NCBI GenBank assembly: GCA_014382245.1
Contig: JACNKC010000057.1
Location: forward strand, 174-64,173
Direction: 5' to 3'
DNA length: 64,000 nucleotides
Origin: Pseudomonadota bacterium
GTDB taxonomy: Bacteria; Desulfobacterota; Binatia; UBA1149
The notes under the pieces are model-generated. The model was not told where the DNA came from. It was given only the letters and a program-made list of their open reading frames with translations, and did no database searches. This document shows positions 40,095 through 54,705 of this stretch, piece after piece (positions within the stretch are counted from its first letter, which is position 1; each line of letters opens with the position of its first letter). The position numbers were made by a program, and so were the translations under genes.

Positions 40095-43000
40095 TCAGCT
40101 CCCGGCCGGCTCGCACACGAACTTCAGTGAATCGGAATCCCGTGTGCCTCGTCCGTTCGTGCCTGGGGTTGAGATCGCCTGCACTTTCAGCTTACCCTTG
40201 CCGGCCCGCGTACCGTCGTTCCTCAGCGGAACCTGAAATTCTACCAGGTCACTGCAGTCACCCTCGACAGTGACCGGCGAGGAGTAGGTTATTTCAGATC
40301 CTGCTCTTCCGCCCAGCGTTGCCTGTCCAGCTGGATCCAGGGACGCTATGGCGTCACGGAGCGCGGTGCCGTTGGCTGCGTCGTGGGGCTTGCGACTGTC
40401 AGGCCTGGGCTTTTTAACCCGTAGCGAATCCACGCCGCTCACCGAGCATGCTAGATCGCCGGTCTTGGGGTCTACGAGGCGAGAGTCATCAAGATTCAGG
40501 CAGGCCGCAAGGCGGAAGACACATACTCCGTTGGCCTGGCCATCTCCGTCGCACACCGGATCACCGTCGCGGCAGGTCTGTTCCGGGTTTATGTAACCTC
40601 TTCTATCGAAGAAGGGGCGGTTGAGGGGGTTGCGTATAGACCACTCCAGCACGCAGTTCTTTTTTGCTGATCCCTTGCCGGGCACGAGGTCACCCGCGGT
40701 TTCGCCCATGTACATGTCGCTGAACTTGCATGTCTCGAACGGCCACACTCCTGTCCCCGATACGGAGGCTGGATCAACGGGGTCAGCATTGTTGTCGTCG
40801 CAGCAGAGCGGCACCGGCGTATCCGGGTCGGCTACACAATCGGCCGTTCTCAGTGAGCAACCGCTTCCAGTGTAGTTGTGTTTACACTTCTTGGTCGCAG
40901 CGGGGAGCATGGGAGTGCTGTTCCGCTTGAGCACCAGGTTCTGCTCCTGCAGGCTCGAGCTGCTCGAGCAGGTACCACCGGCGGGGCAGTTGTCTGGGTT
41001 TTTCTTGCTGCACGGTAGGCCGTCCATGGTGCCGCCCGAGCAGGTGCCCTTGTCTACGAAGCCGTCGTTGATACGATCATCCCAGCACATGCTAACGGTT
41101 ATCGCCGACGCGAACTGGGTGACGCCGGGGGCGGTCGTGTCTTCGGGGGTCAGAATTGCCCGCATGCCAACACCCGCTCCCGCCTCTACCTTGAACTTGT
41201 CACTGCCCGAGCTGTGATCGAAGCCGGTAATGGAAAAACTGGTGTCGGTGGCAATGGCACCAGCTGGTACATCAATGGTAACGCAGCCGTCAGTCGTGGT
41301 GAGCGTGCCTCCGGCAACACCGATGTTCACGCCACCGGACCTAGCCACGGTGCAGTTCTGGTCAGAAAAAGCAGGGCAGTCGTCGCATACATCGCCACCG
41401 TCGCAGCAGCCCTCCTTGCCGACGGGGACCACGCCCGAGCAGCCACCCGAAACCCAGAAAGCGGGGTCGGTACAGTCGTAGTCAGCCTGGTCCGGGTTGT
41501 ACTCGGCGGCGCAGTTGTCATCGGGGTCGCACACGCCGTCGGCGTCTGGATCGGTGCTGTCGCAGGTGTCGGTGGCTTCTTCGCAGTTGTAACAGGTACC
41601 CAGGGCCAGGCAGGGGTCGCCGCCGCTGGTGCAGGCCGCGGCCTGGCAGGTCTCAATGCCCGTGCAGTAAAGCCCGTCGTCCGAGCAGGCCGTTCCGTTG
41701 GCCAGGGCCGGATGCGCGCAGGCGCCCGCGCCATCGCACTGGTCGTCGGTGCATTCGTTGCCGTCGTTCGTGCAGGCTGTTCCCGCACTCACGTCGCAGC
41801 TGTTGGCCGCCTCGTCGCAACTGTCGGCGCACTCGGCGCCACCGACGCAGGGGTCGCCGCCGCTGGTGCAGGCCGCGGCCTGGCAGGTCTCAGCGCCCGT
41901 GCAGTAAAGCCCGTCGTCGGTGCAGGCAGTGTCGTTGGCCACGGCCGGATGCGCGCAGGCGCCCGTGCCGTCGCACACGTCGTCGGTGCATTCGTTGCCG
42001 TCGCTCGTGCAGGCTGTATTCGCCGCCACCGCGCAGCTGTTAGCCGCTTCGTTGCAACTGTCGTCGCATTCGGCGCCACCCACGCAGGGGTCGCCGCCGC
42101 TGGTGCAGGCTCCAGCCTGGCAGGATTCTGAACCAGTACAGTAAAGTCCGTCGTCGGTGCAGACAGTGTCGTTGGCCACCGGCGTGAACACGCAGGCGCC
42201 CAGCGCGCAGGAGTCCGAGGTGCACTCGTTGCCGTCATTGCACACCAGGGTCAGGCAGGGGTCGGGGGCAGGTTCTTTTATTACGTGAGTGGTGCCGTTG
42301 GGGTCGCCTATTCCCGAGCCGCCAACCGATAGATCCAGGGTGCCGTCGCCATCGAGGTCGCCGAGGTCTACGCCCCAGCCGAGATTGCCGTCGTTGACCT
42401 TGCCGTACCAGACCGCCGGTGCGGTGTTTATCGAGGTGTTCAGTCCACTGTAAGTGCCGCCCGAGAGTACAAATACGCCGCCGTTCTGGGCCATTCCGCC
42501 TCCGGAATACAAGGGCGCCCCGATGTAGAGTTCGAGCTTGCCGTCGGCGTCGTAGTCGGCGGCAGCCAGGTCGGTGCCCAGGCGGTCAAACACCGCGTCG
42601 CCGTCTCCTATGCAGCTGTCGGCGCTGGTGTAGGGCGAGGGGTAGTCCACCGGGTAGACCGCGGGCGAAGCCCCTATGGGTCCGTACTTGATGTACACGC
42701 GCGATTCCACCGCCACCCCGTCGCTGGGAGACCCGACCACGAGGTCGTCGATGCCATCGGTGTTGACGTCGGCCACGTCAAGGCCCTGGCCGAACCAGGC
42801 GTCGTCTTTCTTCATGTCGATGCAGGCCGAAGCGACGCAGGAACAGGAGCCGCCACAGGCCGGCGCGCCGTCCATGATGCTCAAGGGCTGGGAGACTGGA
42901 TTGTTGATGGGGCCGTTGGCGCAGAAATTGAACTCGACCACGGCCGCGGTTCCAAGCAGGTATACGCGTCCCGCCCGGGCGAACCCGTGGCGGTGTATGG

Positions 43001-43733
43001 GTGCGCCGACCACGAGATCGACCAGTCCGTCGTTGTCTATGTCGCCGGCTGCCGGGTAGCCGAACATTTCGAGTTGCGCGCCACCGCTCATTATCGAGTA
43101 GCCGTTGCCCCCGGTGTACAGGCGCCAGTTGTCGGCAAATATTTCCTGTCCCCACACGAGTCCCGCCGACTTGTGCAGCACGTGGATGGCACCGCCATCA
43201 ACCTTTACTCCACCCGCTAGGCCGGCCACCGGATCGGCCAGTGGGTCACCGATGATGAGGTCGTTCTGCCCGTCGCAGTCGATGTCGGCAATCTCAAGGC
43301 CCAGGCCGAAACCGCCGCTGCCCGTCAAGGCCGTGGGTGCGTTGATGCGGAAGGCGTTGGGGGCGACGGCGCCGGCTTTGCAAAGCACGCTCACGTCTTC
43401 GGGCGCTGCTCCCATGGCGATGGCCCCGCGTACAAGGCACACGTGGTCGCTGCCGGGCACGCCTATGGCGATGTCGTCAATGCCGTCAGCGTCAAGATCG
43501 CCCACGGCCACGCCGCGGCCCGAATCGGTGGCCAGCGCAGCACCGCCGAGGTAATCGTGGCCGCTCACGGCCTGGGCCGAGACCTCGGCCGGTACCGCCC
43601 AGGCCTGCTGGGCTGTAAGCGTGATGGTGAGCACTGCCAGCGCGAGCAAGGAAAAACCTCGCACTGCGACGCAAGCGCTGCCTGTGCACCCGGGAGCGCT
43701 GCGGTGAATCGACGAATGGTATTCAGTGGTCAT
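40095..43733 (-). CDS. Large secreted FG-GAP (integrin-alpha-like beta-propeller) repeat protein with tandem Cys-rich repeats and a TSP3-like Ca-binding motif (1212 aa)
   Basis: Signal peptide SLLALAVLTITLTAQQAWA. At least six FG-GAP/Ca-binding repeats (e.g. GDLDADGIDDIAIGVPG, GDIDNDGLVDLVVGAP, GDLDGDGTLDLSVGG). About 2.75 near-identical 79-aa Cys-rich modules (ANDTxCTDDGLYCTGxExCQAxACTSGGDPCVGGAEC...GNECTDDxCDGxGACAHPA). A DPDADGVCDPDDNC thrombospondin-type-3-like motif. No recognisable C-terminal sorting tag. Confidence 0.8.
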   Translation of the reverse strand: MTTEYHSSIHRSAPGCTGSACVAVRGFSLLALAVLTITLTAQQAWAVPAEVSAQAVSGHDYLGGAALATDSGRGVAVGDLDADGIDDIAIGVPGSDHVCLVRGAIAMGAAPEDVSVLCKAGAVAPNAFRINAPTALTGSGGFGLGLEIADIDCDGQNDLIIGDPLADPVAGLAGGVKVDGGAIHVLHKSAGLVWGQEIFADNWRLYTGGNGYSIMSGGAQLEMFGYPAAGDIDNDGLVDLVVGAPIHRHGFARAGRVYLLGTAAVVEFNFCANGPINNPVSQPLSIMDGAPACGGSCSCVASACIDMKKDDAWFGQGLDVADVNTDGIDDLVVGSPSDGVAVESRVYIKYGPIGASPAVYPVDYPSPYTSADSCIGDGDAVFDRLGTDLAAADYDADGKLELYIGAPLYSGGGMAQNGGVFVLSGGTYSGLNTSINTAPAVWYGKVNDGNLGWGVDLGDLDGDGTLDLSVGGSGIGDPNGTTHVIKEPAPDPCLTLVCNDGNECTSDSCALGACVFTPVANDTVCTDDGLYCTGSESCQAGACTSGGDPCVGGAECDDSCNEAANSCAVAANTACTSDGNECTDDVCDGTGACAHPAVANDTACTDDGLYCTGAETCQAAACTSGGDPCVGGAECADSCDEAANSCDVSAGTACTNDGNECTDDQCDGAGACAHPALANGTACSDDGLYCTGIETCQAAACTSGGDPCLALGTCYNCEEATDTCDSTDPDADGVCDPDDNCAAEYNPDQADYDCTDPAFWVSGGCSGVVPVGKEGCCDGGDVCDDCPAFSDQNCTVARSGGVNIGVAGGTLTTTDGCVTIDVPAGAIATDTSFSITGFDHSSGSDKFKVEAGAGVGMRAILTPEDTTAPGVTQFASAITVSMCWDDRINDGFVDKGTCSGGTMDGLPCSKKNPDNCPAGGTCSSSSSLQEQNLVLKRNSTPMLPAATKKCKHNYTGSGCSLRTADCVADPDTPVPLCCDDNNADPVDPASVSGTGVWPFETCKFSDMYMGETAGDLVPGKGSAKKNCVLEWSIRNPLNRPFFDRRGYINPEQTCRDGDPVCDGDGQANGVCVFRLAACLNLDDSRLVDPKTGDLACSVSGVDSLRVKKPRPDSRKPHDAANGTALRDAIASLDPAGQATLGGRAGSEITYSSPVTVEGDCSDLVEFQVPLRNDGTRAGKGKLKVQAISTPGTNGRGTRDSDSLKFVCEPAGS
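41611..42265. repeat. Tandem direct repeat, period about 237 bp, about 2.75 copies, high identity; encodes the Cys-rich modules of the FG-GAP protein
   Basis: The 30-mer caggggtcgccgccgctggtgcaggccgcg recurs at 41611, 41849 and (with 2 mismatches) 42084. Flanking sequence is near-identical across copies, and the six-frame ORF track shows mirrored overlapping ORFs over this span. Confidence 0.8.
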
Positions 43734-44252
43734 GTTATCTGTCCCCCCGGCAGGATCCCCTGTAAGGCTCCGGCCGCCGTAATCCTTATTCCTTCAACGA
43801 TGCAATCCCTGTGCCGCATCCGACACAAGCGCTGCGAGGCGCTATTACCCGCTGCGCGTCCTTGCTCCGGCGCTGCAGCCGCTAAGCTGGGTTTTCACCT
43901 GCCGTAGCATCCGGCTGCTTGCTGCCAAGCCTGGTTTGCAGTGGGCGTGGGAGGGCCGGCTGGAGATTCTCCCGCTTCGGCCCTCGTAGACCCCGCTCAT
44001 TGTCCAACTGAGCGGCAGCAACCGGCACTTGTCAACGGGCGCCGGTTCGTGGAGGGCGAATGAGATGGGCAGCGGGTGGCAAAGGGGAGTCTTTTTCGAT
44101 GACCACAAGGCGTTGGCTGTGTATCAGCCGCATAGTCTCGACCCCTGCACAAGGGGGTGAAAGTGGCGCGGTTGACGGGCAACGGCTGAGCGTATAACCA
44201 CTTGGCGGACGGTTGCGGCTCAACGGCTGCGGCGGGCAGAGAGCCTGAGAAG

Positions 44253-45104
44253 ATGAACTACAGGGGAAAGGTGGCGGTGGTTACGGGCGCTTCGTCGGGA
44301 ATAGGCTACCAGGCGGCCCTGGCACTGGCCGAGCGTGGTTGCACCGTGGTGGGTGTCGCGCGCCGGCAGGCCGAACTCGAGGAACTCACCAGCCGCTGCC
44401 GGCGGCACGCGTCGGATTCCACCTTCATGGTCGGCGATCTCGGTGAGCGCGCCTTCGCCGAGCACGTGGTAAACGACAGCGCTCGGCGCTTCGGTCGCCT
44501 CGACATCCTGGTCAACAACGCGGGCATTCCCATTCACAAGCATATCTACGACGTGACTCCCGACGACGTGGAGAGAGTGATGCGTGTTAACTTCATGTCG
44601 AGCGTGTGGACCACGCTGGCGGCGATTCCCCACATGCTGCTGCTGGGCGAGGCGTGGATAGTAAACGTGTCTTCGTTTGCCGCCCAGGTCGCGCCGCCGC
44701 GCGAGACTGCCTACACGGCTTCGAAGGCGGCAATGGATGGTTTTACCGAGGGGCTATGGACCGACCTCGCGGGGTCGGGCATACACGCGGGCCTGGTCAT
44801 CCCGGGGCCCATCGACACCGAGATCTGGGACAAGGACGACAGTCCCAGTGCCTACAGCGGCAACCTGCACCCGCCGTCGATAGTGGTGGACGCCATCCTC
44901 GAGTGCATAGAGAACAAGCTGCGCGAGGTGGTCGCTCCGCGCTACAGTCCGCAGTTGCTCGCCGCCCGCTGGATGAGGTTTCTCACCCCGTCGCTCATGC
45001 TCAAGGGCATGAGCTGGATGGAGCCGGTACCCGAAGAGGTCGTGTCGCGCGCCCGCGCCGCGGCCCGGCGAAAGCGCGACGGTGAAGGGGGGGGCATGGG
45101 ATGA
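44253..45104 (+). CDS. SDR family oxidoreductase
   Basis: Start at ATG 44253 (MNYRGKVAVVTGASSGIGYQ). Contains the NNAG motif and a YTASKAA catalytic Tyr-x3-Lys. Confidence 0.8.
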   Translation: MNYRGKVAVVTGASSGIGYQAALALAERGCTVVGVARRQAELEELTSRCRRHASDSTFMVGDLGERAFAEHVVNDSARRFGRLDILVNNAGIPIHKHIYDVTPDDVERVMRVNFMSSVWTTLAAIPHMLLLGEAWIVNVSSFAAQVAPPRETAYTASKAAMDGFTEGLWTDLAGSGIHAGLVIPGPIDTEIWDKDDSPSAYSGNLHPPSIVVDAILECIENKLREVVAPRYSPQLLAARWMRFLTPSLMLKGMSWMEPVPEEVVSRARAAARRKRDGEGGGMG

Positions 45105-45769
45105 GCCTTCTGCCGACGCCGCTCAGCGAGGGACTGTACGAATACCTGTGCGCACATCGCAGCGGGCACGACACCGGGCACCGCTCGCTGCTCGAAGAGC
45201 TCGCCGAGGAGACCCTGGGCATGGGCGACATCTCGATGATGCAGATAGCGCCCGACCAGGGAGCCCTGTTGACCATGCTCGTGAGCTTGATGGGTGCCCG
45301 CAAGGCGGTCGAGGTGGGTACCTTTACCGGCTACAGCGCGATTTGTATTGCCAGCGGGCTCGCGCCGGGGGGCAGCCTGCTGTGCTGCGACGTCAGCGAG
45401 GAGTGGACCTCGATGGCGCGACGCTATTTCACGCGCGCCGGGTTGGACGACACCATAGAGCTGTGCATCGCCCCTGCCGCCGAAACCCTGCGCGCGCTGT
45501 CCGAGCATGACGACATCGACTTTGCCTTCATCGATGCCGACAAGACCGGCTACCGCGACTACTACGAGCAGTTGCTCCCGCGCATGCGCGCGGGAGGGTT
45601 GATCGTGTTCGACAACGTGTTGTGGCTGGGGCAGGTGGTGCGCGAAGATGATCAATCCGAGAGCACGGTGGCCATGCGTCGTCTCAACGACGCCGTGGTC
45701 GCCGACCCGCGCGTTGAAGCAGTGATGATAAGCGTGGGCGACGGCCTGCTGCTGGCGCGCAAGCTCTGA
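45101..45769 (+). CDS. Class I SAM-dependent O-methyltransferase (family 3, CCoAOMT-like)
   Basis: VEVGTFTGYSAICIA (SAM-binding motif I) and DFAFIDADKTGYRDYYEQLLPRMRAGGLIVFDNVLW are characteristic of cation-dependent O-methyltransferases. ATGA overlap with the SDR gene. Confidence 0.8.
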   Translation: MSLLPTPLSEGLYEYLCAHRSGHDTGHRSLLEELAEETLGMGDISMMQIAPDQGALLTMLVSLMGARKAVEVGTFTGYSAICIASGLAPGGSLLCCDVSEEWTSMARRYFTRAGLDDTIELCIAPAAETLRALSEHDDIDFAFIDADKTGYRDYYEQLLPRMRAGGLIVFDNVLWLGQVVREDDQSESTVAMRRLNDAVVADPRVEAVMISVGDGLLLARKL

Positions 45770-45774
45770 CCGGC

Positions 45775-48000
45775 TCAGCCGCCCGCCGGCGTAAGGAATA
45801 TCGGCGATGACCAGGCGCGGTGGGCGGCCGGCTCCAGGCAGTCGTCGTCGTAGTCGCTGCGGTAGTCGCCGTAGCAGGGGTCGGGCTTGCAGTCGCCCTG
45901 CTCGTCGAATTCGCAACGCGATCCGCCGGCGTTCACCGTGGGCGTGGGCTCTTCGATGGCGCGCGCGTAGTAGAGCGCCTCTCGTTCGCTGCCCAGGAAC
46001 TCGGGGTCGTCGAACTCCACCGTGCAGCCGTCGGCGTCGGCCGGGCAGTCAAAACTGCGCCAGGGGTCGTCGATGAGGTCAGCCACGTCTTCGTCCGGCG
46101 ATTCCTGCGGCCTGATGCGCACCACGTCTATGCGGGTTATCTGCCGGCGTTTTTCGCCCGGGTTGTAGCACTCGCCGCGGCAGAGGTAGGCCAGTCGCTC
46201 GGGTGACAGGCCCGACAGCGATTCTTCGGGGCAGCCCTCGGTCTGCTCAAAGCTGCCGGCCGCGCGTACGCGCAGGCGCGGGTTGTTGGCCAGCTCAAGC
46301 TCACTGCCCATGGGCAGCACCTCGCCGTCGGGGCCGTTGAGGAGGTCAAACCAGAGCAGTATGCGCGGGCCGCTGGTGCCGTAGATTTCGCGGCGTGCCA
46401 TCGAGTCCCAGATCGCTCCGCGATCACGCGCCGGGGAGTGCACCGCCACCAGTCCACCGGTCATGAAGAACGACGCCTGTCGCTCGAAGTCGACTATCTG
46501 TGTGCGCATGGCGGCGGGGTCGCCCGGTGTGACCTGTCGGGACCGGTTTCCCTGCGGCTCGAGGTAGCTGGGCATCAAGCGCTCGGCCCAGGTCTCGTCG
46601 CGGGCACCGGCGGCCTCGGTGTTGGCCTGCCGGTCAAATTCCTTGAAGCCGGTACCGGGGCGGGCGGTGTGGTTGTCGCTCGACGCCATGAAGCCGAAGC
46701 GAAATCGTCGTGGGTCCTTGTCTTCTTCCTCGAAGTTCGAGATCGCCAAGATGTACTGCACCGAGTTGCCCGGCCGGTACGCCATCGAGGGCAGGAAACA
46801 GTCGCTGCATTCGTCGCAGTTGCCCCACTCGACCAGCGGCGCCCACGGGATTGTCAGTCGCCCCGACGGGCTCGCGGCCAGGTAGTTGGCGCGGGCCTCG
46901 ACTATCTTCTCGCGGCACTCATCTGAATCCCGGTCATCGCAGAGATTGCCGATGATCTCACCCGCGCGCCAGCAGCAGGCCTCGAAGCCGGGTTCGGGCG
47001 CTGGGCAGGCATCGGCTCCCTGCTGTTCGAGATCCACGGCCCGCCAGCTGCGGTACTCTTCGCTGTTGCCGTGGCCCGAGAACACCTCGACCAGGGTCTG
47101 TCGTTCGGGATCGTGCATGGCGCCGGCCAGCTGCTTGTCCCAGGTTCCGCCCGGTGGCGAGTAGAGGCCCCAGGTGGTTCCGTGCGGTATGACGATCGAC
47201 TCGTGGCCCCACTGGGCGAGCTTTTCGTAGAGCACGTCGGGTGAGGCCGCTTCTTCCGAGCAGTCCAGGGGTAACTCGCGGGTGTCAACGCCGTCAGCGC
47301 AGATGGGAGTCTCGCCGATTTCTTCCTGGAAGGTGTTGGCGTTGAGGTAGCGCTGGGCGTTCTGCCAGTCGGCCACCACGGGGAACCAGCGCTGGAGGAA
47401 GGTCTGGCGGGTGCGCATGCCCTGTCCGGCCATGCCGCCGGCGTGTATGGGCCGCGCGGGGATCTTGTCGTCGTCGAGGTCGCGCAGGATGACGTTCTTG
47501 TGCCCGTAGTGGCTGTCGGGGGTCATTCCGATCTGCGTCCACTCCCAGCCGAGGTAGGCTACCACGTCGGGGTTGTCGGGGTCACCGGCCAGCTCGTTGC
47601 ACTGGCGAATGGTGTCGGTGGTTTCCTTCCAACGCAGGGGAGTTATGGCCTCTGCGTGGTCGTTGATGCTCCAGAAGTCGAGGTTGGAGCAGTAGCGCGC
47701 AAAGTCGCAGGCGTCGGCCACCGGGTGTGCGCCTTCGCCCTGGAGGATGGGCAGGCTCATCATGAAAGCGTCGGCCGAAAAGGTGGAGTGTACGTGCAGG
47801 TCGCCGAACAGGATCTGCTTGTCTGTTGCACCGGCTTTCGCACGGTTGGCCAGGACATCGGCGGTCGCCGCCTGGCGGGCCGTCTTGTCGGCTGCCATGG
47901 AGTCGGGCTGGCCCGCGCCTTCTATGTTGCCCGGGCCCTCGTGTTGCCCGCAGGCGGCAAGCAACAGGGCGCAGGCAATGGCTGTGTAGAATTTGTTCAT
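45775..48000 (-). CDS. Lipoprotein with PHP-like metal-binding N-terminus (DUF3604-like), 741 aa
   Basis: Start at ATG 48000 gives the lipoprotein signal MNKFYTAIACALLLAACGQ. A PHP-like HxH motif (LFGDLHVHSTFSADAF) follows shortly after. A large Cys-rich central region and the overall architecture fit DUF3604-family proteins. The ORF finder upstream extension is Arg-rich low complexity. Confidence 0.65.
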   Translation of the reverse strand: MNKFYTAIACALLLAACGQHEGPGNIEGAGQPDSMAADKTARQAATADVLANRAKAGATDKQILFGDLHVHSTFSADAFMMSLPILQGEGAHPVADACDFARYCSNLDFWSINDHAEAITPLRWKETTDTIRQCNELAGDPDNPDVVAYLGWEWTQIGMTPDSHYGHKNVILRDLDDDKIPARPIHAGGMAGQGMRTRQTFLQRWFPVVADWQNAQRYLNANTFQEEIGETPICADGVDTRELPLDCSEEAASPDVLYEKLAQWGHESIVIPHGTTWGLYSPPGGTWDKQLAGAMHDPERQTLVEVFSGHGNSEEYRSWRAVDLEQQGADACPAPEPGFEACCWRAGEIIGNLCDDRDSDECREKIVEARANYLAASPSGRLTIPWAPLVEWGNCDECSDCFLPSMAYRPGNSVQYILAISNFEEEDKDPRRFRFGFMASSDNHTARPGTGFKEFDRQANTEAAGARDETWAERLMPSYLEPQGNRSRQVTPGDPAAMRTQIVDFERQASFFMTGGLVAVHSPARDRGAIWDSMARREIYGTSGPRILLWFDLLNGPDGEVLPMGSELELANNPRLRVRAAGSFEQTEGCPEESLSGLSPERLAYLCRGECYNPGEKRRQITRIDVVRIRPQESPDEDVADLIDDPWRSFDCPADADGCTVEFDDPEFLGSEREALYYARAIEEPTPTVNAGGSRCEFDEQGDCKPDPCYGDYRSDYDDDCLEPAAHRAWSSPIFLTPAGG

Positions 48001-48095
48001 CGGCAAGGTAACCCCCTGTGGTTTCGCGGAGCGTGATTTCGCGCAGCGTGAGCCTGCGGAATCTAGCCGTGGCGCCGCGCTGAAAAAAGCGCGCG

Positions 48096-48386
48096 TTACA
48101 GCGCCTGGGGACGGGCTTGCGCCCAGGACTGGAGTTTCTTGATCTGCTCGAGGTCGCCATCCTTGCTGGCTATGCCCTCGTTGCGGGCGTCGTGTATGCA
48201 GTCGACCGGGCACAGCGGCACGCAGAGGTCGCAGTCTATGCACTCCTCCGCGACGATGGCGAAACGGCCCAGGAAATCGCCTGCTACTTCGTAGACCGCG
48301 TCCACCTTGCCGGGGCAGGCGTGATCGCAAGCCCCGCAACCAATGCAGGTGTCGTCTACGTAATAGTGTCCGTGTCGGCGGGCCAT
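48096..48386 (-). CDS. 2[4Fe-4S] ferredoxin
   Basis: 96 aa from ATG 48386 with two cluster motifs, CIGCGACDHACP and CIDCDLCVPLCP. Confidence 0.8.
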   Translation of the reverse strand: MARRHGHYYVDDTCIGCGACDHACPGKVDAVYEVAGDFLGRFAIVAEECIDCDLCVPLCPVDCIHDARNEGIASKDGDLEQIKKLQSWAQARPQAL

Positions 48387-48396
48387 GCCAGGCGGC

Positions 48397-48900
48397 TCAG
48401 GAGGTGGGAAAGCTGGTCGTGAAGGCCGCCGAGGCGTTGAAGAATTCCTGCAGGCTCTGGTTGAAACGAAAGTACATGTCGCGACGCAGCGGATCATCCG
48501 AGAGCAGGTGCAGGGGAGTGCCCATGTGGCTCAGCCGGTTGAGCGTCTGGTCCAGTGCCGGGCGACCGTTGCCCGCCGCGATGCTTTCTATCATTGCCTG
48601 CCAGGTCTCGAGCTCAGCCTCCAGCGTGAAGTCGGCGCGGTTGGAGTCTGTTTCGCCGGTAACGCGTACGTCGGTGGCCTCGAACTCGTCGAAGGTCACC
48701 TGCACGGCCAGCGCTCGGGTGCCGGTCACCGAGAAGCCGGCCACGCAATCCACGTAGCCGAGTTTTTCCTGCCGCGCGCGGTTGTCGTTCATCAGCGCAG
48801 CCAGGCGCTCGAACCACGCGAGCGAGGGGAACTCCAGGGGCTCGGCGTTCTTTCCTTGTACCGCGCTTTCTTCCTGCGCGTCGGCCACTACTGTAACCAC
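48397..48900 (-). CDS. Hypothetical protein, possibly SCP2-like lipid-binding domain
   Basis: 167 aa with no catalytic motifs. The C-terminal half (ADFTLEAELETWQAMIESIAAGNG...ALDQTLNRL) has the amphipathic pattern of SCP2 sterol-carrier domains. It is tightly packed between the ferredoxin and diiron-protein genes, overlapping the latter by 13 nt. Confidence 0.35.
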   Translation of the reverse strand: MVTVVADAQEESAVQGKNAEPLEFPSLAWFERLAALMNDNRARQEKLGYVDCVAGFSVTGTRALAVQVTFDEFEATDVRVTGETDSNRADFTLEAELETWQAMIESIAAGNGRPALDQTLNRLSHMGTPLHLLSDDPLRRDMYFRFNQSLQEFFNASAAFTTSFPTS

Positions 48901-50117
48901 GGGGCCTGCGTGGGGATACCGCAGCGTTCACTGCGATCAAAGCCGGCACGCCGGCAGCGGCCCAGGTACTCCTCTATGAAATTGCCCCACAGGGCTCCCG
49001 CCTGCTCCAGCCCCTGCTCTATGCGGTTGACTCCCCCTCCCAGTAGTATGGCCAGGGGCTCTATCAGTGCAGCCTCGGTAAACGCCGTCAGTATCACCAT
49101 CTCGCCAACGTCGGCAAAACGGTGCATGTCTTCGAGCGCCGCGTCGCGATCGGGCACGTTGTCGAGGTGGTTCTTGAGCTCCATGACGCCATAGCTCACG
49201 TGGCGGGCTTCGTCCTGCAGGCAGAGGCGAAAGATTTCCTTGTCCACGTGTGTCTTGGCTATCATTTCGCCCGAGCGGAAGATTGACAGTACCAGGCCTT
49301 CGCCGAGCAGGTTCAGCAGGAAGGTGCCCATGGTGTGCGACGGCGCTTCCATGATGGCCTTCAAGGCCCACTCGAAGCCCGGCGACGCGTGCAGCAGGCC
49401 GCCGCCGGCGATGGCGCGCTTGCGAAACACCTCCTGGTGACGGGCCTCGTCCATCAACTGGGTGGCGAGAAAACTCTTCACCTCGAGAAAGTCCTGGGGG
49501 ATGCGGTACAACCACTTGGCCGGAAAGTCACCGGCCACGAACTCGACCTCGGTAAGAAAGGTACACAACTGGCAGGTGGCCTTCTCGAGGTCCTCGGGCA
49601 GGGATTTGAGTTCATCCCAGGGTATGTCGCGGGTAGCGTTCCACTGCCTGGCCTTGGCTTCTTCGTAAAGCGTGATGACGTTCTCGGCCCATAGTTCGTT
49701 GCGATCAACGACGTCGTAGGCTGACAGTACCGGCATACGTTGGGCGTAGGGGTCGCGCACCGAACCACGCGGGGCGAAGTTGAGCCACTCGGCTTTCTCG
49801 GGCATCTGCCCGTAGGGCTCCACCCGGTTTGTGTCGGCGTAGGTCATGCCGCGCGACGACGGCTTGGCGCGTCGTCCCCAGTTGGCCTTGTCGGTCTCCA
49901 TCCAGTGCAGCGAGAACCTGCCGGCCTGCAGGCGCTCACCGTTGTCATTCAGTATCTCGGCCCAGGTGGTCATCTGCTGCCCGAAGGCCAGCTCGTAAGA
50001 TTCCAGGCTTTCTTCGGGCACGGCGTGTTCGGGGGGCAGGGGGCTGAGGTCAGTGGGACTGGCGGCTGGCTTGCTCATGGCGGCTTCGCTTACAACAACT
50101 ATTGACAAATCACTCAA
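48888..50117 (-). CDS. Ferritin-like diiron-carboxylate oxygenase/desaturase family protein (acyl-ACP-desaturase/AurF-like)
   Basis: Two E-x28-34-DEARH units (TEVEF...MDEARHQ and GEGL...QDEARHV, about 83 aa apart) reproduce the Glu/Glu-x-x-His ligand spacing of soluble diiron desaturases/oxygenases. A ferredoxin gene lies downstream in the same operon. Confidence 0.55.
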   Translation of the reverse strand: MSDLSIVVVSEAAMSKPAASPTDLSPLPPEHAVPEESLESYELAFGQQMTTWAEILNDNGERLQAGRFSLHWMETDKANWGRRAKPSSRGMTYADTNRVEPYGQMPEKAEWLNFAPRGSVRDPYAQRMPVLSAYDVVDRNELWAENVITLYEEAKARQWNATRDIPWDELKSLPEDLEKATCQLCTFLTEVEFVAGDFPAKWLYRIPQDFLEVKSFLATQLMDEARHQEVFRKRAIAGGGLLHASPGFEWALKAIMEAPSHTMGTFLLNLLGEGLVLSIFRSGEMIAKTHVDKEIFRLCLQDEARHVSYGVMELKNHLDNVPDRDAALEDMHRFADVGEMVILTAFTEAALIEPLAILLGGGVNRIEQGLEQAGALWGNFIEEYLGRCRRAGFDRSERCGIPTQAPWLQ

Positions 50118-50150
50118 TAGCGCTAAGAGTGTAGCTCACTGGAAGCTGTC

Positions 50151-50768
50151 GTGTCAAGGAACACAACTAGCAATAAAAAAAAACGCCGCCGGCTTTCGCC
50201 CGAACAGCGCAGTGAAGAGCTCATAGAGGCGGCCGTGGCGGTGTTCGCCCGCCTGGGATTGGGGCGGGCGGGCCACGCCCAGGTGGCCGAAGAGGCGGGT
50301 TGCGCGGTGTCGACGGTGTTCGTGTACTTTCCGAGCCGCGAAAGCCTGGTCGACGCGGTGATCGCCGAGGTGGCCGGCTTTCTCCTGGAGATGGCCGAGA
50401 GCGTCCACGGCTCCGGTGGCCCGGCGCCGGAGGTCGTGCGCCGTCATGCTCGCGCGTTCGTAGAAGGCGTCAATCGCCGTCCCGACGTGGCGCGGGTGTG
50501 GCTCGACTACAGCACGGCCGTGGGCGAGGACACCTGGCCGCGCTACCTCGAGCTGCAGGAAAAGATCGTGGCCATCATGCGTGACACCATTGAGCGCGGG
50601 CAGGGCGAGGGCAGCGTCGCAGCCGACGTTGACGCTGACGACGACGCCAGGCTGGTGGTAGGCTCGGCCCACATGCTCGCGCAGATGAAGTTCGCCGGCC
50701 GGCCGGACGACCAGGTTGAACATTTTCTCAACACGCTGGTGGGCCTGACCATGCGACCGCCGGCGTAG
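50151..50768 (+). CDS. TetR/AcrR family transcriptional regulator
   Basis: HTH ELIEAAVAVFARLGLGRAGHAQVAEEAGCAVSTVFVYFPSRESLVDAVI. GTG start. Divergent from the diiron oxygenase operon across a 33-bp gap. Confidence 0.8.
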   Translation: MSRNTTSNKKKRRRLSPEQRSEELIEAAVAVFARLGLGRAGHAQVAEEAGCAVSTVFVYFPSRESLVDAVIAEVAGFLLEMAESVHGSGGPAPEVVRRHARAFVEGVNRRPDVARVWLDYSTAVGEDTWPRYLELQEKIVAIMRDTIERGQGEGSVAADVDADDDARLVVGSAHMLAQMKFAGRPDDQVEHFLNTLVGLTMRPPA

Positions 50769-50810
50769 CTTGACCGATGGCCCCCACGGGAGTGCAGGTG
50801 TCATCGGCGC

Positions 50811-51614
50811 TTGCACTGGGCGCGGGGGGACAGGATGCTGGCCGCCATGCTGGCTCAGGGTAGTGCTGCCGCTGAACTTGCCGGCCGCGTGGCGGTCGTC
50901 ACCGGGGCCTCGCGCGGAATTGGCGAAGCCGTTGCCCGTTGTCTTGTTGATGCCGGCGCCAGGGTAGCCTTGCTGGCCCGAGGACGTGAGCGACTCGAGC
51001 GCGTCGCCGCCGGGCTGGGCGCGCAGGCGCTGGCCGTACCGACCGATGTTGCCGATGCGGACAGCGTGCGCGCTGCTTTTGTTACCGTAGCGCGTGAGTT
51101 CGGCCGGCTGGACCTGCTGGTCAACAACGCTGCCATCGGCCGCCTGCACTCTATCGAAGAGGCCTCCGACGCGGATCTGCGTGAGACCGTCTACACCAAC
51201 CTCGGCGGCCCGCTGTTGTGCAGCCGCGAGGCCGTGCCTCTCATGAAGAAATCGGGTGGAGGGCAGATCGTCAACATAGGCTCGGAGGCGGTGCTCAATC
51301 CTTTTCCGTTGTTGTCGACCTACACCGCCACCAAGGCCGGCCTGGAGTTGTTTAACCGTGGGCTGCGGGCCGAGTTACGCGGCGACAACATCCGGGTGAC
51401 CCTGCTAAGGTCGGGGGCGACCAGCGGCGGCTTCATGGAAGACTGGGATCCCGACGAAGCCGCGCGCGCGATCGGGCTGTGGGACGAGCAAGGCTACCTC
51501 GCCTTCGCGGGCGCGCCCATGCAGCCCTCGACCGTGGCCGAGTCGCTGTTGCACGCCGTCACCCGCCCGGCAGGCGCGAGCGTGGATACCCTCGAACTCA
51601 GGTCGGCTGGCTGA
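50811..51614 (+). CDS. SDR family oxidoreductase
   Basis: VAVVTGASRGIGEAV, LVNNAAIG and YTATKAGLE are SDR motifs. The exact start is uncertain (several in-frame Met between 50811 and 50850). Confidence 0.8.
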   Translation: MHWARGDRMLAAMLAQGSAAAELAGRVAVVTGASRGIGEAVARCLVDAGARVALLARGRERLERVAAGLGAQALAVPTDVADADSVRAAFVTVAREFGRLDLLVNNAAIGRLHSIEEASDADLRETVYTNLGGPLLCSREAVPLMKKSGGGQIVNIGSEAVLNPFPLLSTYTATKAGLELFNRGLRAELRGDNIRVTLLRSGATSGGFMEDWDPDEAARAIGLWDEQGYLAFAGAPMQPSTVAESLLHAVTRPAGASVDTLELRSAG

Positions 51615-51617
51615 CGG

Positions 51618-52250
51618 TCAGTGGGTGGCCTTGAGGCCGCCGAGCAGCAGGTCAAGCCAGCGGTCGAGCAGGGGGCCGTCCAGGGGCTCCTTGAACACGC
51701 CCTTGTTGGTGGCCATCTGTATGACACCGTTCAGGCCCGCCCAGAACAGCGCCGTAGTTTCCCTGATGTCGAGGTCGCGAAGCAGTCCCTGGTCGACGCC
51801 GTCGGCGATCACCCTGGCAACAGTGCCCATGGCGTGCCTCGTTCCGGTGTAGGCTCGCTCAACCAGTGCCTGCTCTTCTTCGTTCGCAGGCGCGAGCGTC
51901 TGGCTCTGAAGGCAGTGGATGATGGCCTGGGCCTCCGGGTGCGCCTCGATGAAACGGCAGTAGGTGAGCGAGATGCGCTGCAGTCTCTGCAGCGGGTCTC
52001 CGTTGCCTGACGATACGCTCTCGAGTTCGGGCAGGATCAACTCTATCGCGCGCACCAGTACCGCCAGGTAGAGGATCTCCTTGCTGGAGAAGTAGTAGTA
52101 GAGCGTGGCTATGTTGAGCTCGCTGCGATCGGCGATGTCCTGCATGGAGGTGGTGTTGTAGTCCCTGTCGGTGAACAGCTCGGTGGCGGCGCTGACGATG
52201 GCGTATTTTCGCGCTTCGCGCTCGCGACTCCTTCTTTCCTGTATTCCCAT
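51618..52250 (-). CDS. TetR/AcrR family transcriptional regulator
   Basis: HTH AIVSAATELFTDRDYNTTSMQDIADRSELNIATLYYYFSSKEILY. Divergent from the acylase gene. Confidence 0.85.
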   Translation of the reverse strand: MGIQERRSREREARKYAIVSAATELFTDRDYNTTSMQDIADRSELNIATLYYYFSSKEILYLAVLVRAIELILPELESVSSGNGDPLQRLQRISLTYCRFIEAHPEAQAIIHCLQSQTLAPANEEEQALVERAYTGTRHAMGTVARVIADGVDQGLLRDLDIRETTALFWAGLNGVIQMATNKGVFKEPLDGPLLDRWLDLLLGGLKATH

Positions 52251-52337: not shown

Positions 52338-52395
52338 CAAGTCTGACTTGACAAAGGGGGTAGGGAGGGGTTATTTATGATTCAAGTGAGACTTG
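52338..52395. promoter_or_regulatory. Two 13-bp palindromes (CAAGTCTGACTTG at 52338-52350, CAAGTGAGACTTG at 52383-52395) plus extra CAAGT half-sites in the TetR/acylase divergent intergenic region; candidate TetR operators
   Basis: Read directly from the sequence. Both are perfect or near-perfect palindromes sharing half-site CAAGT, lying between the divergent TetR (51618..52250) and the acylase start (52495). Confidence 0.45.
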
Positions 52396-52494
52396 AGAAG
52401 CCGTGGCGGTGCCCGTGGGGCCGTCACCGACCGGCACCGCGACGCGCCGGCCGAAATTGGCTATGCTACTGAAAACACTGGAGGAAAGGGCATC

Positions 52495-54705
52495 ATGGCG
52501 AGAACAGGTAAACAAGGAGTGGTGGCTCTGCTGTCGGAATTGCTGCTTGCCGGAAGCGCGCAGGCCTGGCAGGCCGAAATCGCCAGGGATCGCTACGGGG
52601 TGCCCTACATTATCGCCGATACCATGGCCGATGCCGCCTTCGGCGACGGCTACGCCCAGGCGGCCGACCGGGGCAAGGAGGCCTTCGAGCTCATACTGGC
52701 GGCTACCGGCACCAGCGCGGCCAGCCTGGGCGCTGGAAACACCTCCAGTGCGTGCCCCGAGGGCAAGAACGTCTGCAACGACATGCAGGCACGGCTGACC
52801 GGGGTCTATCGCACGGCCTACGCCCAGTGGACCGCCATACCCGCCGAGGTTCAGGAGATCGCGTCGGCCTTTGCGGCAGGTGCCAATCTCTGGGGTCTCG
52901 AGAACGCCGGTGAGCTTCCACCCGGCGCCCGTCCGCTGACCGGCCAGGACATAATAGCCTACGCCCAGTACACCGGCGTGGCCCGCCAGTTGCTGCAGGC
53001 CACAAAAGAGAAAGCCCAGGAAGGCCAGGACACCGAGTGCGGTGAGGGCTCAAACGGCGTCGTGCTGGCCAACTCGCTCACGGGCAACAAGGGCGTGATC
53101 CTGCAGGTGGATCCGCACACGCCCTGGTCGGGCTTCAACCGCTGGTACGAGAAGGCCTACGTTACACCGGACACCGTTATTCACGGGGGAGGCCCCACTG
53201 GCCTGCCCTTGTTCCTGTTTGCCACCTCGGATCGCGTGGGATGGGCGCTGACCCGTAACTCGGGTGACCGGGGCGACTGTTTCTATGTAACCCCGGACCC
53301 CGCCGACCCCTTGCGTTACATGTACGATGGCGCGTCGCTGCCGCTTTCGAGCGTAACTGAAACCATCGAGGTAAAGGATTCGTCGTCGGTTCAGTTCGAG
53401 GTGCTGTCAACGCAGCACGGACCGATATTCGCCAAGGAGGGGGGGCTCTACTACGCGGCCGCCATGAGCATGGAAAACCGCACGGGAGTGTTGGGGCAGA
53501 TGCTGGCCATGGCCGGGGCCGACAGCGCAACGGAACTGGATGCCGCGTTTTCGATGATGGAGATCGATGGCGCCCAGGCAATGTACGGTGACGTCGATGG
53601 CAACATCGGCTACGCCTGGCTCAATCGCTTGCGCGATCGCGACGACTCTTACTACTGGGAGTACTGCGTGGATGGCAGCATATCGGCCACTGCCCTGGGT
53701 GCCGTGCTCGACTTCGCCAGCCTTCCCGGTTCCACCAACGACCCGGGCGGTTACTACCAGGCGTGCAACCAGCCCGACTGGCTGGTCAACGGCGGAGCCT
53801 GGGGGATAGACCCATGGAGCTATCCCGGTTGGCTGCGCGGCAGGGATTTTGTCCGCGACTATCTCGGCGCGAGAGCGCAGCGCGTGGTGGACCTCATACA
53901 GTCCAGGCAGCGGCACTCGCATGGCCGCGCGCGCAAGAGTTCGCTGGACACCGCGCTGCTGGGCGCGGTGTGGATGATTCCGGTGCTGGAACGGGCAATG
54001 GCACAGTACGGTGACGGCGGAGATCCGCTGGTGCAGAACGCATTTTCGGAGCTATTGCGCTTCAAGCGCAAACCGCGGGCCACGGCCAGGTCACGTGGCT
54101 ATGCCCTGTGGCACGAATGGAACGGCTACTGGGTGCAGGACGCGGTGCTCGGCAGCGCACCACCCGCCTCGCCCGAGGTTTCGCGCATACGCGAATTCTA
54201 CGACCTGCCCGATCATCCCGAAACCGTGAGCGATCTCGACCTGCAGCGAGCCCACCAGGCCTTTCTCGACGCTGTCGCCCACCTGAACAGTTACTACCTG
54301 GCCGGGCACTACGATTCGCCGCTGCCGCGCTGGGGAGACATTAACTTCATACAGTTGGCCGACGGGTCGAAGTACGGCTTCGGCGGCTCCGACGGCGAGT
54401 TGCAGGGTATATGGCAGGGTAGCCACGGCGGTGGTTCCTGCGGGGCCTTTCCTAATCCCTCTGCCGATGGCACCTGGACCATTAACGCCGGGTCGGACTT
54501 CATGATGTCGTCGCAACTGCGCACCCTGCCCAGGCTGCCGAAGGTCTACACGCTTGTCCCCTACGGAGTGAGCAACGACCCGGCCTCGCCTCATTTTGCC
54601 GACCAGACGCGGCGCTACGTGAAGGGCAAGTACAAGAAGGTGCCTTTCGGCGAGAAAGATGTCCGTCGCAAGGCCAAGTCGATAGTGACCGTGAGCGGCA
54701 GCTGA
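52495..54705 (+). CDS. Penicillin-amidase/acylase family Ntn-hydrolase (S45; PGA/AHL-acylase-like)
   Basis: Start at ATG 52495 with a GGAGGAAAGGG RBS gives the signal peptide MARTGKQGVVALLSELLLAGSAQA. RDRYGVPYIIADTMADAAFGDGYAQAADR is the classic S45 N-terminal block, and there is an internal SNG (SNGVVLANS) autoprocessing/nucleophile site. 736 aa. Confidence 0.8.
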   Translation: MARTGKQGVVALLSELLLAGSAQAWQAEIARDRYGVPYIIADTMADAAFGDGYAQAADRGKEAFELILAATGTSAASLGAGNTSSACPEGKNVCNDMQARLTGVYRTAYAQWTAIPAEVQEIASAFAAGANLWGLENAGELPPGARPLTGQDIIAYAQYTGVARQLLQATKEKAQEGQDTECGEGSNGVVLANSLTGNKGVILQVDPHTPWSGFNRWYEKAYVTPDTVIHGGGPTGLPLFLFATSDRVGWALTRNSGDRGDCFYVTPDPADPLRYMYDGASLPLSSVTETIEVKDSSSVQFEVLSTQHGPIFAKEGGLYYAAAMSMENRTGVLGQMLAMAGADSATELDAAFSMMEIDGAQAMYGDVDGNIGYAWLNRLRDRDDSYYWEYCVDGSISATALGAVLDFASLPGSTNDPGGYYQACNQPDWLVNGGAWGIDPWSYPGWLRGRDFVRDYLGARAQRVVDLIQSRQRHSHGRARKSSLDTALLGAVWMIPVLERAMAQYGDGGDPLVQNAFSELLRFKRKPRATARSRGYALWHEWNGYWVQDAVLGSAPPASPEVSRIREFYDLPDHPETVSDLDLQRAHQAFLDAVAHLNSYYLAGHYDSPLPRWGDINFIQLADGSKYGFGGSDGELQGIWQGSHGGGSCGAFPNPSADGTWTINAGSDFMMSSQLRTLPRLPKVYTLVPYGVSNDPASPHFADQTRRYVKGKYKKVPFGEKDVRRKAKSIVTVSGS

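Follow-up and report, generated by a model that had tools for sequence, protein, structure and literature searches.

We describe a compact operon in a 64-kb stretch of DNA from a bacterium of the Binatia (GenBank assembly GCA_014382245.1, contig JACNKC010000057.1, positions 174 to 64,173); the whole stretch is called the window below. The operon encodes a ferritin-like dimetal-carboxylate protein (FLP), a small protein with a predicted SCP2 fold and a 2[4Fe-4S] ferredoxin, and it diverges from a gene for a TetR-family regulator of the LuxR/HapR/SmcR type. Our favoured reading, held with modest confidence, is that the locus is a self-contained three-component system in which a dimetal-carboxylate oxidase or oxygenase activates O2 and acts on a hydrophobic substrate. 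A first reading of the window by a model, made from the letters alone (the original prediction), had pointed to four open reading frames (ORFs) here; all four were found in place, the ORF list and its translation serving to verify genes and motifs, and its interpretation is supported, with the refinements given below.

The module was compared with five loci found by exact protein look-up, 80 from genomes, 80 from metagenomes and six of a sister family, with duplicates then removed; the denominators below are the loci with enough sequence for the gene in question. In the core family (113 loci with an FLP at least 60% identical) the SCP2-like gene lies directly downstream of FLP in 102/102 loci and the ferredoxin gene comes next in 94/95, while a TetR gene is divergent in 75/100. 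Another 50 loci belong to subfamilies below 60% identity, mostly at 43–56%; where a taxon is given, it is mainly Acidimicrobiia or Actinomycetota. There the SCP2-like gene is present in 35 of 38 and the ferredoxin in 23 of 30 (a tblastn count, Pfam revealing further Fer4 genes in these loci), and a divergent TetR gene in none of 33. The trio is retained in sister subfamilies at ∼50% FLP identity, and the 148-aa partner protein of a sister subfamily is homologous to the SCP2-like protein of the window (37% identity, E 3e-26). This arrangement is far beyond chance. Clustering of all flanking ORFs revealed no other widely recurrent neighbour; a luciferase-like monooxygenase (12 loci), a short-chain dehydrogenase/reductase (SDR, 12 loci) and a crotonase (8 loci) recur sparsely, probably as lineage effects. 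Because the trio co-occurs, nearly without exception in core loci, and nothing else does, the module can be called self-contained, as had been proposed from the window.

The family is large and comes from uncultured hosts. At 90% identity the matches to FLP make up more than 2,000 clusters, the best 120 being 69–92% identical, and an exhaustive search of 50%-identity representatives gave 880 related clusters. Between Binatia, Myxococcota, Gamma- and Alphaproteobacteria members keep 70–78% identity, and Acidimicrobiia contribute sister groups. A scan of 185,579 species-representative genomes returned 80 loci, every one of them in a metagenome-assembled genome (MAG) and none from a cultured isolate; their taxa are Binatia, ‘delta proteobacterium’, Myxococcota, Gamma- and Alphaproteobacteria, and Acidimicrobiia. 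The closest relatives of the window locus, at 91% FLP identity, are L006, from a MAG labelled Binatia, and L120 and L121, from two metagenome contigs. A tblastn search of plasmids gave just one partial match, 27% identical, in Xenorhabdus. None of the best 120 homologues has a precomputed Pfam domain, and ‘ferritin-like domain-containing protein’ is the most specific name given to any of them. Literature searches found no paper on the family or on the combinations ferritin-like/SCP2/ferredoxin, Binatia with ferritin-like, or sterol carrier protein with diiron, and nothing useful on PDB entries 8zf2 and 8zf3. Neither Pfam nor NCBIfam has a model for the family, and the literature searched does not describe it.

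FLP carries a complete E/ExxH/E/ExxH ligand set (E179, E211, H214, E260, E290 and H293). The two DEARH motifs, at residues 210–214 and 289–293 of the translation, are invariant in 30 homologues. Throughout the catalytic clade, which extends down to ∼31% identity to the window FLP, E211, H214, E260 and H293 are invariant together with D210, D289, R213 and R292, and E179 and E290 are at least 90% conserved. The helix-B ligand is taken to be E179 and not E177, since E177 varies while E179 is at least 90% conserved. The original prediction had read two Glu...DEARH units as a diiron site on a four-helix bundle. In the AlphaFold2 (AF2) model the ligands indeed fall on four separate predicted helices (E179 on 162–190, E211 and H214 on 198–224, E260 on 248–268, E290 and H293 on 280–307), so that the DEARH repeats map onto the helices of a ferritin-like bundle. 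By its model and fold matches FLP belongs to the ferritin-like dimetal-carboxylate (class I diiron) superfamily, as a predicted four-helix bundle with E/ExxH/E/ExxH; it passes the threshold of no curated family, and no link to a characterised family unrelated to oxygen activation emerged. An N-terminal region of ∼130 residues, with invariant R104 and W130, is family-specific.

Among remote relatives below ∼38% identity (P0256–P0370) many are without several ligands, having for example DAGRH or QDVGRW for DEARH and no helix-E Glu. These ligand-poor proteins retain the D..R pairs, R104, W130 and W154, several have N-terminal extensions of ∼100 residues, and they are probably non-catalytic paralogues, to judge from their sequences. 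A Pfam scan of the remote relatives gave them no named family, apart from a lycopene-cyclase-like (FAD-type) domain fused to the C-terminus of one, P0352 (658 aa). In three others (P0261, P0277 and P0291) an N-terminal segment resembles, judged by eye only, a Cys-less TusA/SirA-like domain.

Searching PDB sequences with a family profile gave a VlmB homologue (E 1.5e-11) and the R2lox proteins of Geobacillus (2e-9), Sulfolobus (5e-7) and M. tuberculosis (4e-4); in the alignment to these relatives all motif positions match, plus an R2-type N-terminal ‘LYE..A...W’ segment. Foldseek matched the FLP model to dimetal-carboxylate proteins only in the PDB, namely R2lox, class Ie ribonucleotide reductase (RNR) R2, soluble methane monooxygenase (sMMO) alpha, a PaaA-like protein, VlmB and 6d9f, with probability 1.00 and a target-normalised TM-score of 0.59–0.64 for the best (R2lox and PaaA-like) and lower for the others. 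FLP is thus a ferritin-like, probably O2-activating dimetal protein of the R2lox/VlmB neighbourhood that is a member of neither family. The likeness to soluble acyl-ACP (acyl carrier protein) desaturases and AurF-type N-oxygenases that had been noted in the ligand spacing stands as regards the dimetal ligand pattern; the nearest relatives by profile search are instead those of the R2lox/VlmB clade.

Several established families were tried and rejected for FLP. No Pfam family passed, with only a sub-threshold match to the AurF/CmlI-type N-oxygenases (PF11583, 19.5 bits against a gathering threshold of 29.6). The third His ligand of AurF, which we take to be H223, four residues before the Glu of the second ExxH, corresponds in position to Cys286, nearly invariant in FLP; a few sister-subfamily relatives carry a precomputed PF11583 match. 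The soluble acyl-ACP desaturase family (PF03405) gave no Pfam or NCBIfam match at E up to 0.01, and neither the 50 best fold matches listed nor the 21 PDB matches of the profile include an acyl-ACP desaturase structure. Class I RNR R2 was rejected with no Pfam R2 match, no adjoining nrd genes and an invariant F218 at what is presumably the position of the class Ia radical Tyr, four residues after the first His. Likeness to the bacterial multicomponent (soluble diiron) monooxygenases is at the fold level only, to the sMMO alpha subunit; these characteristically combine an alpha subunit of ∼500 aa with a beta (and a gamma) subunit, a coupling protein and a reductase, and genes for such partners are in no locus. 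In NCBIfam only the R2lox model NF006200 matched, at 29 bits against a cut-off of 194, well short of an equivalog assignment.

The second protein of the trio has a confident AF2 model (pLDDT 88.9) whose top Foldseek matches are the Thermus SCP2 structures 1wfr and 2cx7 (E 1e-6 to 8e-6, probability 1.00, target-normalised TM-score 0.71–0.76), followed by yeast, human and insect SCP2 and then UbiJ-SCP2 (6h6p, rank 16). A profile of the 167-aa family against the PDB found only the same Thermus entries (E 0.004–0.005). The Pfam signal for SCP2 (PF02036) is sub-threshold, at 15.4 bits against 21.3, with sub-threshold matches also in 11/30 homologues; the SCP2-like pattern seen in the original prediction is borne out by the predicted alpha/beta fold. 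Members of this family are 60–70% identical across phyla, unusually high for a lipid carrier, and share many invariant polar residues. We infer from this conservation that the protein may be an obligate subunit with a conserved protein interface and not a free carrier. Two proteins, P0503 (453 aa) and P0382 (199 aa), have an FLP segment and an SCP2-like segment in one chain, as a fusion or as a frameshift or assembly artefact, and are not relied on here; a true fusion would favour physical contact between the two proteins.

The third protein contains two CxxCxxCxxxCP motifs (residues 14–25 and 49–60 of the translation) and passes the Pfam dicluster model Fer4_21 (42.3 bits, threshold 35), which identifies it as a bacterial-type 2[4Fe-4S] ferredoxin encoded alongside the enzyme, in line with the original prediction.

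Some gene starts required correction. The FLP ORF as listed is 409 aa (48888–50117, with a TTG start at 50117). The 120 best homologues have 388–410 aa, most of them 395–397, and M1 of a 396-aa form is invariant in an alignment of 30; on these grounds the start was placed at the ATG at 50078, and the size of 409 aa given before is revised to 396 aa. With FLP starting at that ATG, the gap to the GTG start of the TetR gene at 50151 widens from the 33 bp first reported to 72 bp. The ferredoxin ORF as listed is 133 aa (48096–48497), its homologues are only 93–95 aa, and the protein is really ∼96 aa, starting at ATG 48386. This start yields the 10-bp spacing between the SCP2-like and ferredoxin genes that the original prediction had given; the SCP2-like gene in turn overlaps FLP by 13 bp (48888–48900).

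The divergent gene matches Pfam TetR_N. Compared with PDB sequences, its product aligns at full length with OpaR, HapR, LuxR and SmcR at E 2e-32 to 8e-22, the next TetR protein reaching only 2e-7, which sets it in the LuxR/HapR/SmcR subfamily, well apart from other TetR proteins. Against the NCBIfam HapR model NF040929 it scores 86.9 bits (E 1.5e-24), below the equivalog cut-off of 350; it is a relative of the HapR-type proteins and not an orthologue. By sequence it appears to represent a non-Vibrio, local-regulator branch of this subfamily of quorum-sensing master regulators. Among the papers found, the HapR-family literature deals with Vibrio species only.

A perfect 7-nt inverted repeat, CTATTGA-N8-TCAATAG, occupies the intergenic region; it is unique in the window, where 0.14 would be expected by chance. 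TATTGA-N8-TCAATA with at most two mismatches occurs in 75/75 non-redundant TetR-FLP intergenic regions (36 exact, 30 with one mismatch and nine with two) and in 3/375 control segments. Where the TetR gene is absent, the palindrome is found in 4/26 core loci and 0/39 distant loci. The half-sites match the SmcR consensus TTATTGATWWRWTWNTNAATAA (PMC2859563), making the palindrome a putative operator of the type bound by the subfamily. A promoter-like site of the operon matches the consensus at 10/12 positions (0.3 such sites expected), a consensus match only. This would set the operator at about +2 to +21, immediately past the −10 element, a placement that fits repression. An Rfam scan of positions 47500–51000 at E up to 0.1 found no RNA family, the scan for Qrr RNAs being confined to that stretch.

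Table 1. Coordinates of the module, its predicted sites and the adjoining downstream gene (window numbering)
Feature	Position	Strand	Basis or remark
Ferritin-like dimetal-carboxylate protein (FLP), 396 aa	48888..50078	-	ORF; start from homologue lengths and invariant M1
FLP ligand codon E179	49542-49544	-	
FLP ligand codon E211	49446-49448	-	
FLP ligand codon H214	49437-49439	-	
FLP ligand codon E260	49299-49301	-	
FLP ligand codon E290	49209-49211	-	
FLP ligand codon H293	49200-49202	-	
SCP2-fold partner protein, 167 aa, conserved core from F24	48397..48900	-	ORF, AF2, Foldseek
2[4Fe-4S] ferredoxin, 96 aa	48096..48386	-	ORF, Pfam Fer4_21, cluster motifs
Ferredoxin cluster motif CIGCGACDHACP	48312-48347	-	
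Ferredoxin cluster motif CIDCDLCVPLCP	48207-48242	-	
LuxR/HapR/SmcR-type TetR-family regulator, 205 aa, divergent	50151..50768	+	ORF, Pfam TetR_N, PDB matches
Operator palindrome CTATTGA-N8-TCAATAG, predicted	50099..50120	.	Perfect 7-nt inverted repeat; core TATTGACAAATCACTCAATA at 50100-50119
Promoter-like site of operon	50128..50157	-	-35 TTGACA 50157-50152, 18-nt spacer, -10 TACACT 50133-50128
DUF3604 protein gene, downstream of ferredoxin	45775-47997	-	Likely start MNKFYTAIACALLLAACGQ; lipoprotein-type signal with Cys lipobox

In the favoured reading FLP would bind two metal ions (Fe/Fe or Mn/Fe) through its four Glu and two His on the four-helix bundle, and the co-transcribed ferredoxin would supply the electrons that reduce the metal site for O2 activation. 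The SCP2-fold protein, as an obligate partner, would bind and present the hydrophobic substrate or stabilise the complex. The substrate would most likely be a fatty-acyl or other lipid-like molecule, and the outcome a hydroxylation, a desaturation or a related two-electron oxidation. The SmcR/HapR-type regulator would bind the 20-bp palindrome and repress the operon and probably its own gene too. The lead towards lipids comes, by analogy, from the SCP2 fold itself and from kinship with R2lox, a binder of long-chain hydroxy fatty acids (PMC9314684). Lipid-related genes are occasional neighbours: acyl-CoA dehydrogenase, acyl-CoA ligase and thioesterase at one locus (L002), and crotonase elsewhere. 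At the Acidimicrobiia sister loci L086 (4681–5883) and L087 (1252–2454; 4590–5954) the gene immediately upstream, in the same orientation, encodes an acyl-CoA dehydrogenase, and at one of the two a cyclopropane-fatty-acid-synthase-type methyltransferase gene lies directly downstream, a weak hint of lipid metabolism.

A number of points weigh against this reading. What the analysis established directly is the presence of the genes, the ligand set, the predicted folds, the synteny and the co-occurrence of operator and regulator; metal binding, O2 chemistry, the electron path, the role of the SCP2-like protein, the substrate class and the direction of regulation are deductions from these. The FLP model is of moderate quality (mean pLDDT 68, pTM 0.75, one good model in five), with residues 1–150 poorly modelled, and its Foldseek E-values are weak (2e-3 to 2e-2). 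The closest characterised relative, VlmB, oxidises an N-N bond and not a lipid C-H bond. Lipid-related genes are found beside few of the loci, where common descent and not function could account for them, and the many invariant polar residues of the SCP2-like protein suggest that it does more than carry lipid passively. The module has no gene for a ferredoxin reductase. Ordinary substrate induction is not to be assumed either, because no native ligand of SmcR-type proteins is known, although every ‘apo’ structure purified from Escherichia coli has density in the pocket (PMC12977469).

The kinship with VlmB also feeds a different explanation, in which FLP serves a natural-product pathway as a tailoring enzyme, an N-oxygenase or azoxy-type oxidase that acts on an amine or hydrazine in the manner of VlmB or AurF. 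VlmB is the best solved relative of FLP by sequence (phmmer 7e-5, profile 1.5e-11), there is the weak Pfam match to AurF (E 6e-4), and VlmB-type enzymes accept aliphatic substrates (PMC11705231). Yet biosynthetic genes (a VlmO-like partner, nonribosomal peptide synthetase or polyketide synthase) are in none of ∼160 loci, the AurF score stays below threshold (19.5 against 29.6 bits) with Cys286 at the position of the extra His, and FLP identity of 70–78% across phyla suits a common substrate better than a specialised metabolite. Because biosynthetic genes never accompany the module, the N-oxygenation entertained in the original prediction is disfavoured as a step of a biosynthetic pathway, and we regard this explanation as improbable. 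We give similarly little credence to FLP as a Coq7-like hydroxylase of isoprenoid quinones or carotenoids, with the SCP2-like protein as a UbiJ/UbiT-type polyprenyl holder. UbiJ-SCP2 is among the SCP2-fold matches (6h6p, rank 16), and SCP2 proteins are reported to assist ubiquinone hydroxylases (bioRxiv 10.1101/587956); the fusion of P0352 to a lycopene-cyclase-like domain points the same way, but that protein is only distantly related. Against it, ubi, men or crt genes are near none of the loci, similarity to Coq7 is undetectable by Pfam, NCBIfam or profile search of the PDB, and a core respiratory cofactor step is not expected in an accessory operon with a TetR-family regulator.

Finally, FLP might be no oxygenase at all, and instead a ferredoxin-dependent scavenger of peroxide or oxygen (rubrerythrin-like), a metal-storage protein or a sensor. 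Peroxidases and ferroxidases are found in the ferritin-like superfamily, a partner ferredoxin of low potential would fit a reductive detoxification, and the loss of ligands in many remote relatives indicates that the scaffold can serve non-catalytic roles. However, FLP resembles R2lox, VlmB and RNR R2, not rubrerythrin or ferritin; peroxide detoxification gives no place to an obligate SCP2-fold partner; the regulator belongs to the TetR family and is not a redox sensor; and the 130-residue family-specific N-terminal region with invariant R104 and W130 likewise speaks against such a role, which we hold to be unlikely.

Genes around the module do not belong to it. At its listed length of 854 aa the DUF3604 ORF runs too far upstream, into the ferredoxin gene. 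Membership of this gene in the operon, or of the operon in a biosynthetic cluster, was rejected, downstream synteny being limited to the 91%-identical L006, L120 and L121. The DUF3604 gene was compared among the genome loci only, where it is syntenic only in L006, which also shares the flanking SDR; it is placed outside the module because it is syntenic only in such close relatives. Right after the ferredoxin stop codon lies a GC-rich hairpin candidate, CGCGCGC-TTTTTTCA-GCGCG (48073–48095, minus strand), with a T-run in the loop, which the terminator scan did not call. Beyond the regulator are an SDR (50811–51614, +), a second, unrelated TetR gene (51618–52250, −) and a 770-aa penicillin-amidase-family gene (52393–54705, +); on the other flank of the module are an SDR (44202–45104) and an O-methyltransferase (45101–45769). 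None of these genes is conserved with the module beyond its closest relatives. An unrelated 1,212-aa ORF with FG-GAP repeats (40095–43733, −) lies 4 kb from the module. PADLOC gave no defence-system match save one marginal match to the ferredoxin.

The obligate SCP2-fold partner suggests a route by which insoluble substrates could be fed to a soluble diiron centre. With all 80 genome loci in MAGs, an abundant, probably O2-dependent activity of uncultured soil, groundwater and marine bacteria awaits assignment. The function of R2lox has been an open question since 2009; FLP, a close relative with an informative operon, which R2lox has not, may be easier to approach. Through its SmcR-type regulator and operator the module is further tied to the question of which ligand the Vibrio quorum-sensing master regulators bind. 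We consider it rather doubtful, though worth stating, that the natural ligand of the regulator is the hydrophobic molecule made or consumed by FLP and its SCP2-like partner, with the module as the conserved local target of a non-Vibrio LuxR/HapR/SmcR branch. As no native ligand of SmcR-type proteins is known (PMC12977469), identifying the substrate of the operon would then, if this is true, yield a first class of candidate ligands for the subfamily as a whole, and would also mark out a new kind of soluble lipid oxygenase with a carrier subunit of its own.

Of the known systems, R2lox (G. kaustophilus 4hr0; M. tuberculosis Rv0233, 3ee4 and 4ac8) is closest in structure: it has a ferritin-like fold with four Glu and two His, its DEA(K/R)H and DE(G/A)RH motifs align with those of FLP, the LYE..A...W segment is shared and it provides the best Foldseek matches; F218 of FLP, at the radical-Tyr position of class Ia R2, is counted here among the likenesses. 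The Val-Tyr ether cross-link of R2lox (V72 and Y162 in G. kaustophilus) corresponds to A182 and L255 in FLP, both conserved, with the helix-B register uncertain by one residue. FLP has ∼130 extra N-terminal residues and, unlike R2lox, for which no such partners are known, SCP2-like and ferredoxin partners. Long-chain hydroxy fatty acids bind to or co-purify with R2lox, another protein whose function is unknown (PMC9314684).

VlmB-type azoxy synthases (8wvr; homologue 6d9f) are the top sequence and profile match to FLP among solved structures. Both ExxH motifs and the helix-E Glu align, in an alignment confined to the core (profile positions 143–289). The entry 6d9f is also deposited under ‘Protein 60 with aldehyde deformylating oxidase activity’. 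VlmB acts with a membrane protein, VlmO, within a biosynthetic cluster (PMC11705231), whereas neither a VlmO-like partner nor such a cluster is seen around FLP.

The regulator compares with Vibrio LuxR, HapR, SmcR and OpaR at ∼40–45% identity over ∼170–190 residues, at full length, and the operator half-sites are the same, TATTGA...TCAATA. Unlike its Vibrio relatives it is found in non-Vibrio, uncultured hosts as a local regulator paired with a single operon, with no known link to quorum sensing or Qrr small RNAs. A divergent TetR regulator also faces the operon of an acyl-CoA desaturase and an oxidoreductase in the DesT-desCB system of Pseudomonas aeruginosa. Here too the operon encodes an O2-dependent diiron lipid enzyme with an electron partner, but the parallel is one of analogy only, DesB being a membrane histidine-box desaturase with a fold unrelated to FLP, and DesT-desCB is without an SCP2-like partner.

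BoxAB, the phenylacetyl-CoA epoxidase PaaABCE and the bacterial multicomponent monooxygenases follow the same scheme, in which a soluble diiron oxygenase has small accessory subunits and receives its electrons along a dedicated iron-sulfur route; in the benzoyl-CoA epoxidase BoxA/BoxB electrons pass from a 2[4Fe-4S] centre to the diiron site. FLP matches sMMO alpha and the PaaA-like 4mud at the fold level and belongs to none of these families at the sequence level (Pfam, NCBIfam). Its module differs from them in having no reductase, beta or gamma subunit or coupling protein, and in an accessory subunit of SCP2 fold. The module is of an already known kind, in which a TetR-family regulator controls a soluble dimetal-carboxylate oxygenase and its own iron-sulfur donor; its obligate SCP2-fold partner is, as far as we are aware, a new component among the diiron oxygenase systems described so far.

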